Shown here piece by piece: positions 1 through 14,686 of a DNA stretch of 15,603 bases (position 1 is the stretch's first letter; each line of letters starts with the position of its first letter). This stretch comes from a virus. Where the stretch lies: the UHGV virus genome UHGV-1832398. The stretch is one strand, 5' to 3'. A program made the position numbers and the translations under genes. Under the pieces are notes generated by a model that searched no databases, was not told where the DNA came from, and worked only from the letters and a program-made list of their open reading frames with translations.

Positions 1-90
1 TTGCCTCCCCCCCGTTGATGGGTAAAATAGCCGCAATTTTTCGTTTTCAACAAGCGCGGCGCGATGCCGCTTACTCAAGAAGAAAGAATT

Positions 91-165
91 ATGACGTTGT
101 CTCCTTATTTGCAAGAGGTGGCGAAGCGCCGCACTTTTGCCATTATTTCTCACCCCAATAATTAA
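91..165 (+). pseudogene. prfC: 5' fragment of peptide chain release factor 3 gene (first 22 codons, [22 protein letters not shown]), then divergence to NN-stop; host gene interrupted by the prophage junction
   Basis: Translation from ATG at 91 matches my recollection of the RF3 N-terminus up to the start of the GTPase P-loop, where the native sequence should continue DAGKT; here it continues NN and stops at 163-165. Upstream 1-90 looks like a host promoter/leader. Confidence 0.7.
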
Positions 166-1813: not shown

Positions 1814-3028
1814 ATGACTAAGCAAAAAAAACCTAGGAAAGTTCGGATAACAAAAGCTGAAAAAGAACGACGTGCAGAGTTTGATAAAAAGGAAATGAAT
1901 ATACGTGAGTATTTTTCAAATTTAAATAAACATGTGAACGATATTCGTAGTAAAGAGCGAGATTTTCATGGCCTTATCAGAGAACTGAATTACTTTCAAA
2001 AAAATATTGAATTTGAATACGAGAAAACGAGGGACATATCCCATCCAAGAGACTTAGGCAATGCTCGCGAAAATATACTAAAAGATTTTTTGAAATTAAG
2101 CGGTTTATTCCCAAGGCGTTATGCTGTGTCTTCAAGAAGCGTAAGAGTTGCTGCTGCTACAGGACATCTTAGCAACGAGATTGACATCGCATTATATGAT
2201 GCAGATGATGGATATGTGCTAATGCAGCGTAACGAAATATATGATGTTTACCCTTCTGAAAATGTATATGGAGTTATTCAAGTAAAATCAAAACTTACTA
2301 GGAAAGAATTAAGCAGTGCCATAAAAAATATTGCATCATATAAAAAACTACAAAGAAAAAAGAATGGCCATGGATTTTTTATAAATAACACATCATTCTC
2401 AGGGTTCGGAGTTGTTTTTGCATATGAAACAGAAATGCACTGGGATGATATAGTATCTGCTCTTAAGGAAGAAATCCAGAGTAATGAAACAAAATTACTA
2501 CCCAATGCAGTTTTCATATTAAATAAAGGCTATTTTTTATTTGGTAACAACAATGAATATCTGAGTTATAATTCAGATAGGATGATTAATGCAACTGACA
2601 TGATTGTACATGGCTTTCCTGATCGTGATGGTTGTTCCTTAGTTAACTTCCACAAGTTAATGATTACATTGTTGAATAATACTCAAAAAGGGAATGTAAA
2701 TATAAGTGATTATTATAGATTACCTTTAACTGCTGGAGATTATTCTTACGAATTTAATTTTGGTATGTTTAATGAGTTAATTAACTGTGAAGTACACGGT
2801 CCATATCATCGTTTATTCAAAGAGAAAGCTTTAAAAACATTAGTAAATTATTGTGTTAGCAATGAACAGATTAATATGGTTAAGTTAATCGACTTGGCTT
2901 TAGGTAAAACTCCAAATAATGAGGAAGCATACCAAAGACAACCATCGATGGTGACATTATATAACCCAGAAAATTTGCCACTACCTGAATTAATGTTTAG
3001 GGCGGTTCCGATGGTAAAGAATATATGA
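1814..3028 (+). CDS. Hypothetical 404-aa cargo protein; N-terminal region carries a restriction-endonuclease-like (Mrr/PD-(D/E)xK-type) signature, C-terminal ~220 aa unassigned
   Basis: Long ORF, markedly AT-rich relative to flanking phage genes. Motifs read from translation: GNARENILKDFLKLSG (aa 82-97), EIDIALYD (D124 at nt 2183-2185), VIQVKSK (Q156 at 2279-2281, K158 at 2285-2287). Followed by hairpin plus T-tract at 3168-3206. Confidence 0.6.
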   Translation: MTKQKKPRKVRITKAEKERRAEFDKKEMNIREYFSNLNKHVNDIRSKERDFHGLIRELNYFQKNIEFEYEKTRDISHPRDLGNARENILKDFLKLSGLFPRRYAVSSRSVRVAAATGHLSNEIDIALYDADDGYVLMQRNEIYDVYPSENVYGVIQVKSKLTRKELSSAIKNIASYKKLQRKKNGHGFFINNTSFSGFGVVFAYETEMHWDDIVSALKEEIQSNETKLLPNAVFILNKGYFLFGNNNEYLSYNSDRMINATDMIVHGFPDRDGCSLVNFHKLMITLLNNTQKGNVNISDYYRLPLTAGDYSYEFNFGMFNELINCEVHGPYHRLFKEKALKTLVNYCVSNEQINMVKLIDLALGKTPNNEEAYQRQPSMVTLYNPENLPLPELMFRAVPMVKNI

Positions 3029-3438: not shown

Positions 3439-3633
3439 TTACTCAATTACTCCAGCAAACCTGTATATCTTACGTGATGCCCATTTATTTGGGCAGGATT
3501 TAATATCAGGATCTGGAAAATCTTGTCTGTATTTCTGGCCAGTCCTCCTATTTACGCTGTTCCAGCGAAGCACCGTTGATATTGAAACGCCACAGAATTC
3601 GGCGACTTGTTTTGTTGTCATTAAGTTGTTCAT
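3439..3633 (-). CDS. AlpA/Xis-family small helix-turn-helix protein (candidate excisionase / prophage regulatory protein)
   Basis: 64 aa; N-terminal MNNLMTTKQVAEFCGVSISTVLRW matches the AlpA/excisionase HTH pattern (L-T-x-KQVAE-x-x-GVS-x-ST-x-x-RW); SD GGAGGGG upstream of the ATG at 3633. Confidence 0.7.
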   Translation of the reverse strand: MNNLMTTKQVAEFCGVSISTVLRWNSVNRRTGQKYRQDFPDPDIKSCPNKWASRKIYRFAGVIE

Positions 3634-4331: not shown

Positions 4332-5156
4332 TCAGGCGCTGAAAGTACCAATGAAGGTTTCTACTTTGCTGTCTTTGAATTTCTCAACAAGCAGATCACG
4401 AAATTCGTTAGCCATTTCTTCCTGCACCGCTTCCAGCTGAATAATGCGCAGAACCAGTACAGGACGATCGCCAGTGATAATGCTGAGGCGTAATTTAAAC
4501 GGACGTTCTTTCAGGCCTTCAAACGGAACGCATTTAAATTCAAATGCCACTGGCATAATATCTTTGGTTTTCGCTTCGACAGACTCCATCAGGGAGCGTT
4601 TGCCGCTGAAGTCATTATCTTCAAAATCAGCGGTCTGGTTTGCTTCAATCGTGATTTTACGGACAGCCGCAGCCGCTTTTGTTGCCTGAATAGCGTCACC
4701 ATTAGCATCAAAGCCCACAAGGTAGCCGGCCCAGTCTTCAATCCATTCTGCCAGTGACTTCTGGGAATGACGCTCGCCATTAACAGACAACAGAGCAGAG
4801 AACGGTGCTGTCTTTTTCAGTTTGAGAGTGGCGGTGTTATCTGCGTGACCTGGTTCATCAATAGTACCCAGGTTAAGCACACTGACGGCTCGCATATTAT
4901 CGGCATCGATAAAGCAGCGGGTGCCTTCATCTGCAAGATCTTTAGAATAACGGGTAAAGTCATCGATGCTGGCAGTGGAAAGCGCACCACGGAAACGGAA
5001 GCGATTTAAATTAAATTTTTCCAGATCATGAATGCGGAAATTCTCAGGCAATGCCACAGCATCGGCACCAATCTTACTGATAATTTCATTAACACCCTGA
5101 GCAGAAATAAGGGCATGGATTTGATTAATTGCGGTTGCGTCTAAGTTCTGAGACAT
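4332..5156 (-). CDS. yfdQ: YfdQ-like prophage protein (DUF2303-type, 274 aa)
   Basis: 274-aa ORF with SD GAGGA 7 nt upstream; length and synteny (between YfdP-like and YfdR-like) match the CPS-53 yfdP-yfdQ-yfdR arrangement as I recall it. Confidence 0.65.
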
Positions 5157-5221
5157 AATAAGTCCTCACTATATAAAGATATTCAGTGATGAGATAAATA
5201 ATCAGTTAATTAAAAACGATA

Positions 5222-5584
5222 TTAACGACCTGCTGCGCGGAGTTTTCCGTCAGGTTCACCGGCAAGAGTCAGTAACTGTCCCTGGTCTTCCTGCAGAATA
5301 GTCAGGCGACCACCGCGATTGACATACATCGGCGTTTCGGTGGTGTCTTCTTCGGAAATTTTCCCGCGGTTAGTCGGGCGAACATATGAGAGTTTGTGTT
5401 TGATTTTCACACGGTTCTCATCAAATGGTTCGATTTCCAGGTTGAGTGAGACCTTACCTTTGGTTTTCGTGTTCATCACACCGGAAGCGACTTCACTGAG
5501 AACTGCGCCGATTTTGGTTTCAAATACGCCGCCGTCCAGCTCCCCGATAAATGCCTGCACATCAGTACTGCGTTCGCTAGCCAT
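5222..5584 (-). CDS. yfdP: YfdP-like small prophage protein (120 aa); the ORF track's 226-aa version is an unsupported N-terminal extension
   Basis: Strong SD GAGGAG 7 nt upstream of the ATG at 5584 (MASERSTDV...); the upstream extension in the same frame is Arg/Cys/Pro/Trp-rich, typical of GC-rich non-coding read-through. Confidence 0.6.
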   Translation of the reverse strand: MASERSTDVQAFIGELDGGVFETKIGAVLSEVASGVMNTKTKGKVSLNLEIEPFDENRVKIKHKLSYVRPTNRGKISEEDTTETPMYVNRGGRLTILQEDQGQLLTLAGEPDGKLRAAGR

Positions 5585-5920
5585 TTTGCTGCTCCTCATC
5601 ATATCGACCCTGCAAGGCCGATTAGTTTCTCCACAAAACAGAGAAGAACACCTGCGGTGGCAGCCGCCCGGATGGATTGGGTTATGAGCCCGTCGTCCGG
5701 TGATGCTCTTCTCTGTTTTGTAAAAAGGACGGTACCAGCCGGAAGCAAGGGTACAAACTGGTACCGCCGGGACTACACACAGCATAAAGTTGTGGTGCCG
5801 GGTGCCTCCCGGTGCCTGGCGAAGGTTGCACACCAGACGGGTGGGTATCCACAGAAGGTCGACTGTCAGCCTCAACCTTAACCCGCGTGCGCTGAGCCGC
5901 ATTCACCACAACGCTAAGGA
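5585..5920. other. GC-rich, ORF-free, highly self-complementary segment in the leftward early transcript (candidate structured RNA element)
   Basis: 15-bp perfect inverted repeat 5633-5647 / 5707-5721; additional nested complementarities 5731-5738/5758-5765, 5789-5797/5904-5912, 5822-5828/5872-5878; overlapping ORFs in several frames (typical of non-coding GC-rich DNA), none with an RBS. Confidence 0.3.
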
Positions 5921-6021
5921 TTCTCTCTGGTTGAAAATACTTAGCTGTTATGTGCCTGTCTTTTCACCACTTCAGGCTCGGTGGGATCCTTTTAAGCCCG
6001 TATACATAAAAGGAAAATCAA

Positions 6022-6267
6022 ATGACTTTTGATGAAAAAGAACTTGATAATGCAATTAATAAAATCATCGTAACGTCGCTCTTTTCCTGTCTCAGCGACA
6101 CTCAGAAGAAACAGTTCTACGAATCGGTTTTCAACATGATCGAGCGTTGTTGTTTCTGCGATGCCGACGAGTTACCTGAAAAAATCAGGAAACAGTTGGC
6201 TGATGCTCTTCGAGTGCGACTTTCTGACCAATTTTCTGAAATGTGCTCTCCGAATTTGGACAAATAG
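6022..6267 (+). CDS. Hypothetical 81-aa protein
   Basis: ORF with SD AGGA 7 nt upstream; protein-like composition; overlaps the 3' end of the convergent minus-strand ORF by 83 nt. Confidence 0.45.
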   Translation: MTFDEKELDNAINKIIVTSLFSCLSDTQKKQFYESVFNMIERCCFCDADELPEKIRKQLADALRVRLSDQFSEMCSPNLDK

Positions 6268-6460
6268 AAAAAGGCCATTTCCATTCAGGGTCTGATGGAA
6301 ATACTTCAGCCTGTTCCAAAGCACGGCGTAAAGAGAACACAACTCCAGCCATAATCTGATGTTTCCCATTGGTCCAGCTATCGCCGCTCTGATCTACAGG
6401 GGCGGCTATGTCGTATGACCAAACGACTTCACAGTTATTGTTTAAAATCTGGACTTTCAT
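6185..6460 (-). CDS. Hypothetical 91-aa protein, first gene of the leftward (PL-type) early operon
   Basis: Start at internal Met (MKVQILNN...) with SD AGGTG about 6 nt upstream; the ORF track's longer 105-aa version starts at 6502. Confidence 0.45.
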   Translation of the reverse strand: MKVQILNNNCEVVWSYDIAAPVDQSGDSWTNGKHQIMAGVVFSLRRALEQAEVFPSDPEWKWPFSICPNSESTFQKIGQKVALEEHQPTVS

Positions 6461-6584
6461 TTCATACACCTGCTTTAACATGAGTGCCTGGTGGCACAAC
6501 ATGACTCAACGAATCATCCTGGACTTCATATGCCCCAGGCGGCTACTTCGTGGGCGTCCTGCCTGTTCGTTATCTTTGATATAA

Positions 6585-6666: not shown

Positions 6667-7293
6667 TTAGAGTTCGTATTGAACTCCTTTGACTACACCA
6701 ATGATAAGGCAATTACCATTGATAGGGATGTTGGGATACCGAGGATTTAATGGCACTAAAAACTTTTGAGGGCCATCGATGACTAATTTTTTTACTGTAG
6801 CTTCGTTTGTTCCATCAAGTCGAGCGATGACTATTTTTCCATGACGAGGTTCTGCATCTGGATCTACAATCACTGTTGCGCCTTCTGGTATTGTTGGGAG
6901 GCCATTAGGGTTAGTCATGGAGTCACCTTTAACCTCTAATGCAAATGAGTTATCACCAATCTTTAATGATGTATCTACCCACTTGTCCACTTCACTAAAC
7001 ACTTCTGCTGCCCTGCACTCAGTAAACTGCCCAGCCTGAACCCACGATATTACAGGAACTCTGCGCATGTTTGTGACGAGTTTGCCTTCAAACTCAGCAC
7101 CATAAAGAATGTAATCTATTGACGTATTGAAGAACTTCGCTAATTTCGAAAGTGCCTCCCCACCAGGGGTATTGATGTCTTTCTCCCAGTACCCCACAGC
7201 AACGTCGCTTACTCCACAAAATTTACCCAATTCTTTCTGGGACGTTCCGGTAACTCTTCTCAGAGCTTTTATACGCTGACCAACCGTTTCCAT
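6667..7293 (-). CDS. cI: CI-type prophage repressor with N-terminal HTH and C-terminal LexA-like S24 autopeptidase domain
   Basis: HTH region (QKELGKFCGVSDVAVGYWEKD); Ala-Gly cleavage site (WVQAGQF); Ser/Lys dyad motifs (GDSM ... VKKL). Confidence 0.9.
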   Translation of the reverse strand: METVGQRIKALRRVTGTSQKELGKFCGVSDVAVGYWEKDINTPGGEALSKLAKFFNTSIDYILYGAEFEGKLVTNMRRVPVISWVQAGQFTECRAAEVFSEVDKWVDTSLKIGDNSFALEVKGDSMTNPNGLPTIPEGATVIVDPDAEPRHGKIVIARLDGTNEATVKKLVIDGPQKFLVPLNPRYPNIPINGNCLIIGVVKGVQYEL

Positions 7294-7390: not shown

Positions 7391-7591
7391 ATGACAACTG
7401 ACGATATCGAAAGCTACTTCGGCAGTATTGAGAAAGTTGCTGCTTTTTTCGGCATAACAACTGAAGCCGTTTATCAGTGGCGAAACCGTCCGGGCCAGTT
7501 AATTCCAAAAGGACGTGCAGCAGAAGCTGCATATAGAACTTGCGGACGGTTGCCATTTAAACCTGAGCTTTATGAAAAATCTAATGGATAA
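7391..7591 (+). CDS. cro: Cro-like small HTH regulator
   Basis: 66-aa ORF divergent from cI with SD GGAGGG; HTH-like segment (VAAFFGITTEAVYQWRNR). Confidence 0.7.
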   Translation: MTTDDIESYFGSIEKVAAFFGITTEAVYQWRNRPGQLIPKGRAAEAAYRTCGRLPFKPELYEKSNG

Positions 7592-11499: not shown

Positions 11500-12495
11500 G
11501 TGACCGTGAGAGCATTACTGACCCCTGAAATTGCCCCGCGTATGGGGATCGTATTGTTCAGGCCAGGTTCAGAGCTGATGCCCCTGTTTATGCAGGGGCG
11601 TGTCCTGCTGGAGCCTGAGCCGGAACGTTATTCATCTTTCGCCAGTGGTGCCGTTCCGGCGGCATCACAACCGCTGGCGGATGATCCTGCCGTTCGGGCC
11701 GTGTTCCGCAATGAGGCAGTGATCCGTCGTGCTGGTGGCGTGGAATGTCTTGAAAGCTGGTTACTTCGTGAAAAAGGCTGCCAGTGGCCTCATTCCGATT
11801 GGCACAGCGAGAACATGACCACAATGCGACACGCGCCGGGCGCAATCCGTCTGTGCTGGCACTGCGATAACCAGCTGCGTGATCAGTTCACGGAACGGCT
11901 GGAATCAATGGCAACGGATAACTGTGCCCGCTGGGTGTTGTCTGTTGTGCGTCGGGATCTCGGTTTTGATGACAGTCACGTTGTGACAATGCCGGAACTG
12001 TGCTGGTGGCTGATTCGTAATGACCTGGCGGATGCCTTACCGGAAAGTGCAGCCCGTAAGGCACTGAGATTACCGAAGCCTGTTGTGCCGTCTGTCACCC
12101 GGGAAAGTGACCTTGTGCCTTCGGTTCCTGCCACCAGCATCATCCAGGATAAGGCGAAAAATGTGCTGGCGCTGAAAGTGGATCCGGAGTCGCCGGAGTC
12201 TTTTATGTTACGCCCCAAACGTCGCCGCTGGGTTAATGAAAAGTACACGCGCTGGGTTAAGACGCAGCCGTGCGCATGTTGTGGAAAGCCAGCTGATGAT
12301 CCCCACCACCTGATAGGCCACGGTCAGGGTGGAATGGGTACAAAAGCGCATGATCTCTTTGTGTTGCCTTTGTGCAGAAAGCATCACGACGAGCTGCATG
12401 CGGATACCGTGACATTTGAAGAGAAGTATGGCTCCCAACTGGAGCTGATATTTCGTTTTATCGATCGTGCGCTGGCAATTGGCGTACTGGCGTAA
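11500..12495 (+). CDS. DUF968-type prophage protein (YdfU-like) with C-terminal HNH-like Cys/His motif
   Basis: C-terminal CACCGKPADDPHHLIGHGQGGMGTKAHDLFVLPLCRKHHDELH; GTG start 1 nt after the KilA-N stop; position between KilA-N and Q as in Qin-type late-regulatory regions. Confidence 0.65.
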   Translation: MTVRALLTPEIAPRMGIVLFRPGSELMPLFMQGRVLLEPEPERYSSFASGAVPAASQPLADDPAVRAVFRNEAVIRRAGGVECLESWLLREKGCQWPHSDWHSENMTTMRHAPGAIRLCWHCDNQLRDQFTERLESMATDNCARWVLSVVRRDLGFDDSHVVTMPELCWWLIRNDLADALPESAARKALRLPKPVVPSVTRESDLVPSVPATSIIQDKAKNVLALKVDPESPESFMLRPKRRRWVNEKYTRWVKTQPCACCGKPADDPHHLIGHGQGGMGTKAHDLFVLPLCRKHHDELHADTVTFEEKYGSQLELIFRFIDRALAIGVLA

Positions 12496-12508
12496 GTGGA
12501 GAACGAGC

Positions 12509-13261
12509 ATGAACCTTGAAGCCTTACCAAAATATTACTCCCCAAAATCTCCAAAATTGAGTGATGCCGCACCGGCGACAGGCTCAGGTGGTTTAACGAT
12601 TACGGATGTGATGGCTGCGCAGGGGATGGTGCAGTCGAAAGCACCGCTTGGGTTTGCCTTATTCCTGGCAAAAGCTGGCGTTCAGGATCCTCAGTTTGCG
12701 ATTGAAGGTCTGCTCAATTACGCGATGGCACTGGATAACCCGACATTGAACAAATTGAGTGAAGAAATCCGGTTACAGATCATCCCTTACCTTGTGAGTT
12801 TTGCCTTTGCTGATTATTCCAGGTCTGCGGCAAGTAAGGCTCGCTGTGAGCCTTGTGCTGGTACTGGATTTCATAATGTATTGCGCGAAGTGGTGAAATA
12901 CTCCAGAAGCGGGGAGTCTGTTATCAAGGAAGAGTGGGTGAAGGAACTATGTCAGCATTGTCATGGTAAGGGAGAAGTCAGCACAGCGTGCAGAGGGTGT
13001 AAGGGTAAAGGTATTGTCCTGGATGAAAAAAGGACCCGGCTTCATGGCGCGCCTGTTTATAAGATTTGTGGGCGTTGCAATGGAAACCGGTTTAGTCGTT
13101 TACCAACGACACTGGCGCGGTGTCATGTCCAGAAGCTGGTACCAGACCTGACTGATTATCAGTGGTACAAAGGATATGCAGATGTCATTGATAAACTGGT
13201 TACAAAGTGCTGGCAGGAAGAAGCATATGCTGAGGTGCAATTAAGAAAAGTGACGAGATAA
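12509..13261 (+). CDS. Late-gene antiterminator Q (QuuQ-like, 250 aa) with multiple CxxC zinc-binding motifs
   Basis: Position immediately upstream of a promoter/terminator pair and the lysis cassette; CxxCxGxG-type repeats (CEPCAGTG, CQHCHGKG, CRGCKGKG, CGRCNG); start at ATG 12509 with SD GGAG (the ORF track's 12467 start lacks an SD). Confidence 0.7.
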   Translation: MNLEALPKYYSPKSPKLSDAAPATGSGGLTITDVMAAQGMVQSKAPLGFALFLAKAGVQDPQFAIEGLLNYAMALDNPTLNKLSEEIRLQIIPYLVSFAFADYSRSAASKARCEPCAGTGFHNVLREVVKYSRSGESVIKEEWVKELCQHCHGKGEVSTACRGCKGKGIVLDEKRTRLHGAPVYKICGRCNGNRFSRLPTTLARCHVQKLVPDLTDYQWYKGYADVIDKLVTKCWQEEAYAEVQLRKVTR

Positions 13262-13889: not shown

Positions 13890-14189
13890 AAAAATTCCTT
13901 AATACTGATAACTGGGCGCACTATACACACGTTCCTGAAGAAAGCTATAGTTTTTTGATGGGGGTGAAGATGGCTGGATGTCTAAAATAAACATTGCTTC
14001 ATATGTTCAACTATGCGTTAATGATTGCGTCGGTTTGAAGAACAGACGATATACGAAGTAGTTTACTAAAGCAGTTCTCATTTCAGGTGTTATTCACTTA
14101 TTCCTTCTTTGAGTCTCTCCAATTAAGTACGAAGTCGTTTCTGTTATACAAGCCATTTATGCCGAAAGGCTCAAGTTAAGGAATGTAGA

Positions 14190-14405
14190 ATGTCAAATAA
14201 AATGACTGGTTTAGTAAAATGGTTTAACGCTGATAAAGGTTTCGGCTTTATTTCTCCTGTTGATGGTAGTAAAGATGTGTTTGTGCATTTTTCTGCGATT
14301 CAGAATGATAATTTTCGAACCTTATTTGAAGGTCAAAAGGTTACCTTCTCTGTAGAGAGTGGTGCTAAAGGTCCTGCAGCAGCAAATGTCATAATTACTG
14401 ATTAA
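14190..14405 (+). CDS. cspB: CspB/CspA-family cold-shock protein
   Basis: 71 aa; [19 protein letters not shown] ... VFVHFSAI (RNP1/RNP2 motifs); conserved 5'-UTR 'upstream box' GCCGAAAGGC at 14161-14170 as in cspA-family leaders. Confidence 0.85.
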
Positions 14406-14686
14406 AATTCATAGTTTGTCTGTATACGATAACGAAGAAGGCTGATGCCTGAGTGGAGATACAGACAGAGTGGTGAATATTGGATCTCTTTAATAAATAG
14501 TAAGGAGGTCCAATACATGAAACAATGGCCAGCATATTTGGCAATAACTTAATCAGGAAAAGTATGCTAACCATTGTGGTGAAGTGCAGGTTTGCTGCAT
14601 GAATAGTTTTACAGCAGAAGCTAACTGCTGGCATAGCAAAACAAAGTGCGTAAGTGGATGACTCCCACAAAAAGTACCACAATATT

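Follow-up and report, generated by a model that had tools for sequence, protein, structure and literature searches.

The STnc100 RNAs, also known as EcOnc27 or sRNA103 in E. coli O157:H7, form an Hfq-associated, prophage-borne family of small RNAs (sRNAs) with a common UGGUGAAU ... CACCGGGAGGCACCCGGCACCA frame, five helices (P1 to P5), a linker, and an intrinsic terminator. EcOnc27/sRNA103 is Hfq-bound, and the canonical members are located in the late prophage region, downstream of stx2B or near Q. PasD, described as a structural relative that has common ancestry with STnc100, depends on Hfq for its stability and was validated by Northern blot. The PasD1 and PasD2 RNAs of enteropathogenic E. 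coli reside in lambdoid prophages near Q, LpxR, and lysis genes, possess many partners in RIL-seq (detection of RNA interactions through ligation and sequencing), and carry a seed stated to differ from that of STnc100. Here, we describe an RNA encoded by the minus strand of a stretch of 15,603 nucleotides (nt) from the virus genome UHGV-1832398, the whole of which is referred to as the window. This RNA shares the sequence frame, the helices, the linker, and the terminator of STnc100, and can be likened to PasD by the published description of the latter. It belongs to a divergent, sub-threshold, promoter-less subfamily of this already described sRNA family, located in the early-left operon of a lambdoid prophage.

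With regard to position and biogenesis, the closest precedent is DicF of the Qin prophage, an Hfq-dependent sRNA that is encoded in the leftward immunity-region dicB operon, is released from a longer transcript by cleavage, and has its 3' end at an intrinsic terminator. However, DicF is unrelated in sequence, has a length of only 53 nt, and is devoid of a complex folded domain; the Rfam scan of the window returned no DicF match. HK022, a lambdoid phage without N, also encodes in cis a structured RNA downstream of an early promoter, termed put (putL and putR). The put RNAs are V-shaped, ~70 nt in length, and bind RNA polymerase through two stem-loops, whereas the core of the window RNA comprises 124 nt, five helices, and a pseudoknot. 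Membership in put was rejected on this architecture; in addition, there is no sequence similarity, the RNA is located ~650 nt from the candidate PL promoter, and its relatives terminate normally just downstream. An original prediction, made from the sequence alone, had hesitated between a put-like element and a stable non-coding RNA for positions 5585-5920, and the latter is the better option.

Family assignment and architecture of the RNA

Rfam analysis of the window reports a hit with STnc100 (RF02076; minus strand, 5942-5719; 41.6 bits; E-value 9.5e-8 to 3.2e-7) that covers the whole model, from position 1 to 206. As the curated gathering cut-off of STnc100 is 47 bits, this hit is visible only with E-value reporting. 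A scan at the gathering threshold returns nothing in the region, and the RNA is therefore missing from genome annotations. The original prediction could not place the RNA in any known family; the covariance search that it proposed does so, with a full-model match at an E-value of ~1e-7, but one that stays below the curated cut-off. Sub-threshold STnc100 matches are found at the equivalent site in SfV, ST64B, 118970_sal3, and phiES15, the sister copies scoring 32-41 bits, with higher values for the subfamily member L017 (47.8 bits) and for a canonical copy from Shigella (L053; 86.6 bits). The window RNA is a significant homologue at the fringe of the STnc100 model. Rfam matches with MIR1094, hairpin ribozyme, ftsZ-DE, and sR24 were discarded as weak (E ≥ 0.27). 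An exact scan with the most conserved 21-mer, ACCGGGAGGCACCCGGCACCA, retrieves at least 120 loci from many Enterobacterales genera (one-genome-per-species contigs), and UGGUGAAU is located 63-109 nt upstream of this 21-mer in 118 of 130 extracts. Tandem arrays of three to four family copies, ~220-480 nt apart, occur in Superficieibacter, Enterobacter, and other genomes (L105, 5469-6547; L052, 137-1619; L107; L034; L035, 6369-7002).

The window RNA differs from the canonical STnc100 members in several aspects. Its P2 stem reads GCGGC/GC..CGC where they have CCCC/GGGG, its location is the early-left operon and not the late region downstream of stx2B or Q, and an additional conserved hairpin comes after it. 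Moreover, no sigma-70 promoter abuts its P1 helix, whereas many canonical copies possess one: a sigma-70-like promoter whose -10 element ends ~7 nt before UGGUG is present in 35 of 92 of them, against 5.3 expected from shuffles. Such a promoter at P1 is a feature of many canonical copies and not a curated STnc100 criterion. In SfV, ST64B, 118970_sal3, phiES15, and LLS, as well as in several prophages of Buttiauxella and Lelliottia, the members with the variant P2 occupy an equivalent slot, with cI on the upstream side and yfdP or kil on the downstream side.

The complete STnc100 core fold is found at 5912-5789, with its UGGUG/CACCA closing helix, AAU junction, P2, P4, and a P5 helix that abuts the P1 3' strand. 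A covariance model (R1) was derived from six sequences closely related to the window core because a MAFFT-only alignment failed to register P4. Searching with R1 returns 127 copies in 100 loci (20-152 bits), canonical ones included, and aligns the window over all 123 model positions. In the R1 alignment, standard pairs occupy 95.6% of the pair cells, as compared with 77.8% when the partners are shuffled and ~44% when they are slid by 1-3 columns. Changes on both sides are observed for 26 of the 30 core pairs (630 cells), which are the compensatory changes that the original prediction had proposed to look for, and every helix is supported by covariation. Independent checks show that the outer P1 pairs covary, and that P4 stems have a mean length of 7.0 base pairs (bp) versus 3.6 bp with the 5' part shuffled, with 47 different 3' hexamers. 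P5 reads CCUGG-AGGCA-CCAGG in a set collected with the 5' motif only and GGUGG-AGGCA-CCACC in phage LLS; these variants are compensatory stems around a kept AGGCA loop. A tRNA-like reading, with P1 resembling an acceptor stem, P2 a D arm, and P5 abutting P1, was dropped: the P5 loop comprises 5 nt and is not a T loop, and no tRNA or ribozyme match was returned. As for the strand, the minus strand (5575-5960) folds as an RNA with -164 kcal/mol (z = -6.2) and the plus strand with -145 kcal/mol (z = -3.3). The initial reading of a structured RNA, transcribed leftward on the same strand as yfdP, is thus backed by both fold and covariation.

Beyond the nested helices, the core contains a loop-loop pseudoknot, formed by a segment of 5-9 nt that begins 1-3 nt past the P3 5' strand and is complementary to the P4 loop. 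The corresponding helix is AAGGCUG/CAGCCUU in phiES15, and UUUGAUC/GAUCAAA, AGCUGGC/GCCAGCU, or CAGUUAA/UUAACUG in other copies. Among 114 distinct copies, the best Watson-Crick helix between the two segments of the same RNA has a mean length of 5.09 bp, as compared with 3.35 ± 0.10 bp (maximum 3.67) when the loops are permuted among sequences (500 permutations), and 50 different helices of at least 5 bp are found. When 12 subfamily members are aligned with MAFFT alone, RNAalifold predicts the pseudoknot helix unaided, with double changes in all six of its pairs. A 2026 preprint on the STnc100/PasD family mentions neither the pseudoknot, nor the early-operon subfamily, nor the overlap with ymfH described below.

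The core is followed by a linker, which is a candidate seed, and by an intrinsic terminator (Table 1). The motif UGCUGUGUGWAGUC within the linker is kept in SfV, ST64B, phiES15, and LLS despite differing adjacent terminators. The terminator is a GC-rich hairpin whose stem of 9 bp, extendable to 11 bp (-19.7 kcal/mol), is followed by a U tract in which the RNA of the K-12 homologue ends. The original prediction had dismissed a terminator on the grounds that no U-tract follows the helices; on the minus strand, however, the helix 5766-5730 is followed by UCCUUUUU. A simple terminator and promoter scan also missed this terminator, because its loop comprises 19 nt, and reported no promoter adjoining the RNA. 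The same slot is filled by GUCGGCGUC...GACGCCGAC in ST64B, GCCCGC...GCGGGC in phiES15, and GCCCAUCG...GGUGGGC in LLS, each followed by a U run, the terminator structure being kept while its sequence is replaced. Across the family, a terminator is located 25-90 nt past the core in 70 of 110 canonical copies (64%) and in 10 of 20 subfamily copies.

Table 1. Position of the RNA, of its parts, and of the flanking elements within the window
Feature	Position	Strand	Remarks
Candidate PL promoter, TTGCCA-17-TAGATT	6613-6585	minus	Just downstream of the cI-like repressor gene; homologous to TTGACC-17-TAGATT of LLS
Upstream hairpin H0, CCACCGAGCCUGAAGUGG	5967-5984	minus	Conserved in L016 (Lelliottia) and phage LLS
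5' hairpin, GCUAAG...CUUAGC	5945-5913	minus	Inside the Rfam match, upstream of the core; an unrelated hairpin at the equivalent place in relatives
Conserved core, 124 nt	5912-5789	minus	Rfam alignment, minimum free energy fold, model R1 (148.5 bits), covariation
P1	5912-5904 / 5797-5789	minus	
AAU junction	5903-5901	minus	
P2	5900-5885	minus	
P3	5884-5882 / 5841-5839	minus	
Pseudoknot 5' strand, AAGGUUG	5879-5873	minus	Pairs with the P4-loop strand
P4	5838-5814	minus	
Pseudoknot 3' strand, CAACCUU	5828-5822	minus	Within the P4 loop
P5, CCGGG-AGGCA-CCCGG	5812-5798	minus	
Single-stranded linker, UUUAUGCUGUGUGUAGUCCCGG, 22 nt	5788-5767	minus	Candidate seed
Intrinsic terminator, stem CGGUACCAG/CUGGUACCG (5766-5730), then UCCUUUUUAC	5766-5720	minus	
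Long conserved hairpin, inverted repeat	5721-5633	minus	Arms 5721-5697 / 5657-5633; in the yfdP leader (xisE in e14)
Small covarying hairpin	5622-5603	minus	yfdP leader
Shine-Dalgarno sequence, GAGGAGC	5597-5591	minus	
yfdP start codon	5584-5582	minus	

RNA ends of the K-12 homologue and proposed biogenesis

The e14 prophage of E. coli K-12 possesses a copy of the element (L128, 3034-3348) whose core is 97.5% identical to that of the window, and for this homologue both RNA 3' ends and Hfq chimeras have been reported. Term-seq data (Adams et al. 2021, supplementary file 1) place a minus-strand 3' end at 1201195, on the final U of the terminator (34,193 reads; window 5722), and another at 1201257, 4 nt past the P1 3' strand (29,484 reads; window 5785), the latter with low intrinsic-terminator and Rho scores. 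A further end at 1201423 (109,099 and 285,136 reads) corresponds to window 5952, that is, 15 nt downstream of the end of the H0 stem (5967), and may mark a processing site from which the 5' end of the RNA originates. The H0 hairpin carries a conserved AAAAGACAGGC tail, is situated in LLS ~20 nt past the -10 element of PL, and scores as a terminator on the plus strand. In a re-analysis of Hfq RIL-seq data (Bar et al. 2021, Table S1), the locus, listed as 'ymfH', accounts for 81 and 117 chimeric fragments with 3 and 4 partners, respectively. Its SIC scores of 0.667 and 0.75 imply that it is always the second RNA in the chimera, an sRNA signature, and its sRNA score is 0.113, versus 0.103 for dicF (Bar et al. 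2021). In a preprint, a 'ymfH' clone triggers RcaT, the toxin of retron-Sen2. The Hfq CLASH (sequencing of hybrids after cross-linking and ligation) supplements do not contain ymfH, and a literature search returned nothing on an ST64B sRNA at this site.

We estimate at roughly 0.7 the probability that the element is a prophage sRNA of the STnc100/PasD family, ~165-230 nt in length, produced from upstream-started transcripts, terminated at 5722 or shortened to the base of P1, Hfq-bound, and acting in trans. If so, the RNA would extend on the minus strand from 5945 (perhaps 5951) to 5722, over ~225-230 nt, and would comprise the 5' hairpin, the 124-nt core with its five helices closed by P1 and its loop-loop pseudoknot, the linker, and the intrinsic terminator. 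Since the subfamily is devoid of its own promoter and located in the PL operon, the RNA, lying between the first leftward gene and yfdP, probably derives from PL-operon transcripts begun upstream. Processing near 5952 would generate its 5' end, and its 3' end would result either from termination at 5722 or from shortening to the base of P1 (~5785). As judged from its relatives, it would bind Hfq, through the U tail of the terminator, and pair in trans with other RNAs, possibly via the conserved linker UGCUGUGUGUAGUC acting as a seed. The terminator would necessarily lower read-through into yfdP-yfdQ-yfdR, and the hairpin at 5721-5633 is a conserved RNA element in its own right, belonging to the downstream leader.

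The yfdP leader and the surrounding prophage

The G+C content of 5585-5920 is 0.565, as compared with 0.444 for 5000-5584, 0.424 for 5921-6500, and 0.453 for the whole window, in agreement with the original prediction of a segment richer in GC than its neighbours. The two 9-bp long-range pairs that had been noticed in this segment are also present, and correspond to helix P1 (5789-5797/5904-5912) and to the terminator stem (5730-5738/5758-5766). The same is true of the perfect 15-bp inverted repeat (5633-5647/5707-5721), which belongs to arms of 25 nt with 84% complementarity (5633-5657/5697-5721); in 200 shuffles of the segment, the longest perfect arm never exceeded 11 nt. The emphasis laid on this repeat was misplaced, however, as it forms a separate hairpin downstream of the terminator and outside the conserved RNA domain.

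This long hairpin immediately follows the U tract, and 48 nt separate its end from the yfdP start codon. On the minus-strand RNA, 23 of its 25 positions are paired, counting G.U, around a structured loop of 39 nt. Several changes preserve the pairing, such as G-C to A-U in ST64B and AAGAGCA/UGUUCUU to AAGGGCA/UGCCCUU in LLS; one position is G.U, A-U, or G-C depending on the strain, and the neighbouring one C-G or U.G, these wobble pairs working only in the minus-strand RNA. One might guess that the hairpin serves as an RNase III or stability site of the leader, or else, with its outer ACAAAAC/GUUUUGU as A and U tracts, as a weak second terminator. The 3' module 5768-5585, made up of the terminator, the long hairpin, and the yfdP leader, occurs alone in mEp460 (L007, 2501-2684), cdtI, and Stx2c phages (L246), with a mosaic junction exactly at 5768, where the terminator hairpin starts. 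Upstream of this junction, these phages possess genes on the opposite strand and perhaps a vestige of the P5/P1 3' end. Among 5,426 complete E. coli genomes, the 3' module is present in 2,811 and the core in 1,878 (~35%).

The window as a whole represents a lambdoid prophage, with an integrase gene (386-1609), a xis-like gene (3439-3633), and the leftward genes yfdR, yfdQ, and yfdP, followed by the RNA, an orf33/ymfJ-like gene, a cI-like repressor gene (6667-7293), cro (7391-7591), and Q (12467-13261). Two convergent open reading frames (ORFs) that overlap by 83 nt, 6022-6267 on the plus strand and 6185-6502 on the minus strand, match the function-unassigned phage protein families phrog_3311 and phrog_3195 and correspond to ymfI and ymfJ/SfV orf33. 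In LLS (L250, 1040-1669), an ORF-free leader of 560 nt leads from PL to yfdP and harbours two intrinsic terminators, a divergent core, and a variant of the long hairpin, without an N-like gene. Loci of Buttiauxella, Lelliottia, Pseudescherichia, and Scandinavium possess neither a terminator nor a long hairpin; the core there is no more than a portion of a 5' leader, with a coding sequence, which is yfdP in Buttiauxella, starting within 25-70 nt (L061, 3697-3880; L062, 981-1165; L016; L017; L023). Elsewhere in the window, Rfam identifies a cspA thermoregulator (14029-14468, plus strand; 158 bits) downstream of Q and before a cold-shock protein gene (14190-14405). A gene encoding a 404-residue DUF6602 (domain of unknown function) protein adjoins the integrase gene on the strand opposite to the early-left operon (1814-3028, plus strand) and may be prophage cargo. 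In ST64B (L004), the isrK sRNA is reported above threshold in the rightward early region (21-97, minus strand; 64.3 bits).

Competing explanations and significance

A protein-coding reading would assign the region to a YmfH-like protein (5909-5599) or to an N-terminally extended YfdP (5902-5222). E. coli K-12 e14 is indeed annotated with a ymfH gene for 103 residues at the matching locus, between ymfI/ymfJ and the next leftward gene. The Prokaryotic Genome Annotation Pipeline (PGAP) marks 5599-5909 as a frameshifted 'hypothetical protein' with boundaries identical to those of ymfH, the 'ymfH' clone is active on the retron toxin, and an ORF of 49 residues matches phrog_33599, its only match and a small PHROG of unknown function. 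Moreover, an ORF of 226 residues (5222-5902, minus strand) crosses the region in frame with yfdP. The original statement that the segment contains no credible ORF thus holds insofar as the frames are not conserved, but not to the letter, since this ORF formally spans it. Against a protein, the ymfH frame is split in the window into ORFs of 75 and 49 residues and broken in most genomes. The region and its ST64B counterpart, 77% identical, differ by 1-nt indels and a 20-nt insertion that put homologous codons in different frames relative to yfdP, and the frame is not intact across ST64B, the window, and K-12; no conserved intact coding frame was found in the homologues. In addition, the ORF encloses an intrinsic terminator at which a 3' end has been mapped, the frames of the region have no Pfam match and a composition rich in Arg, Cys, and Pro, and the substitutions track base-pairing and not codons. 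In K-12, P5 differs by a G>A change in the stem and a 1-nt deletion in the AGGCA loop, which is otherwise conserved across the family; read from the sequence, this deletion fuses two frames and thereby creates the 103-residue ORF, apparently an accidental product of the decay of a cryptic prophage. The protein-coding reading is largely refuted and retains hardly any likelihood, and the annotation of K-12 ymfH as a protein gene is probably wrong, the evidence favouring an RNA gene. It is just as improbable that the palindromes act in duplex DNA, as a recombination boundary, an operator, or a cruciform. The mosaic junction exactly at 5768, with mEp460, cdtI, and Stx2c phages sharing only 5768-5585, would fit such an element, and an inverted repeat of 25 nt is symmetrical by nature. 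However, G.U and U.G pairs are tolerated on the minus-strand RNA only, the other strand exhibiting a C.A mismatch in the window and, at the neighbouring pair, A.C in K-12 and ST64B; the core helices contain many G.U intermediates, folding is more favourable for the minus than for the plus strand, and RNA 3' ends map here.

The remaining alternatives concern the function of the RNA, and several observations weigh against an sRNA of the kind proposed. The window copy falls short of the STnc100 gathering cut-off (41.6 versus 47 bits); no promoter adjoins the RNA, and a sigma-70 promoter at P1 is found in none of 16 subfamily members, which makes expression in this prophage uncertain. A search of the window for complements of the linker yields no more matches than chance, and no target was identified. 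The covariation was counted on an alignment fitted to model R1, all experimental data come from the K-12 e14 copy with its two P5 mutations, and the complexity and conservation of the core go far beyond the needs of seed pairing. Finally, in the terminator-less loci of Buttiauxella, Lelliottia, and related genomes, the core leads directly into a coding sequence and resembles a 5' leader element more than it does a free-standing sRNA. A cis-acting leader element, compatible with an sRNA, is a less probable though tangible alternative, in which the core would control PL read-through past the terminator(s) to yfdP-yfdQ-yfdR, or to xis-int in e14, by antitermination, attenuation, or processing, put-like in action but unrelated to put. 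Such a role is suggested by the terminator-less relatives (L061, L062, L016, L017, L023), by the two intrinsic terminators located before the first gene in the leader of LLS, and by the lack of an N-like protein between PL and the RNA, the orf33 product being devoid of an arginine-rich motif. The position in the PL operon, 0.35-1 kb downstream of the cI-like gene in SfV, ST64B, phiES15, LLS, L016, L043, L061, and L062, agrees with it, and the invariant loops and the pseudoknot point to a partner other than mRNA. On the other hand, the canonical relatives are stand-alone units made up of promoter, core, linker, and terminator, and accumulate as terminated RNAs on Northern blots; therefore, their cores do not abolish termination just downstream. 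Likewise, the K-12 terminator past the core yields a 3' end, one of the LLS terminators lies upstream of the core and thus out of reach of a put-like element, the architecture is unlike put, and the genes downstream of family members are heterogeneous. Somewhat more doubtful is the idea of a self-contained folded RNA domain with a job other than seed pairing, able to bind RNA polymerase or a protein. Five helices, the covarying pseudoknot, and near-invariant AAU, P2, and AGGCA loops persist in it throughout many genera, within tandem arrays, and in early as well as late prophage operons. Such a domain could let PL transcription pass the intrinsic terminators before yfdP or xis-int in N-less phages such as SfV, e14, and LLS, being functionally analogous to put, or could be an RNA effector in phage-defence conflicts, the 'ymfH' clone that triggers the retron-Sen2 toxin being essentially this RNA.

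An sRNA of the STnc100/PasD family thus remains the preferred explanation, and it extends the range of this family beyond the late region with Q, stx, and lysis genes to the immunity-proximal early-left operon of SfV-, e14-, and ST64B-type phages. The subfamily, carried by ~35% of complete E. coli genomes, is presently unannotated or called a (frameshifted) hypothetical protein, ymfH in K-12. The likely mis-annotation of ymfH and the covarying pseudoknot are the notable additions to what has been described for these RNAs. The well-supported pseudoknotted fold provides concrete disrupt/restore mutants for these abundant prophage RNAs; the long hairpin and the terminator preceding it, both situated between PL and yfdP or xis, are relevant to early-left expression in N-less lambdoid phages. 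Lastly, if ymfH acts as an RNA, this would change the reading of ymfH phenotypes such as the triggering of a retron toxin.

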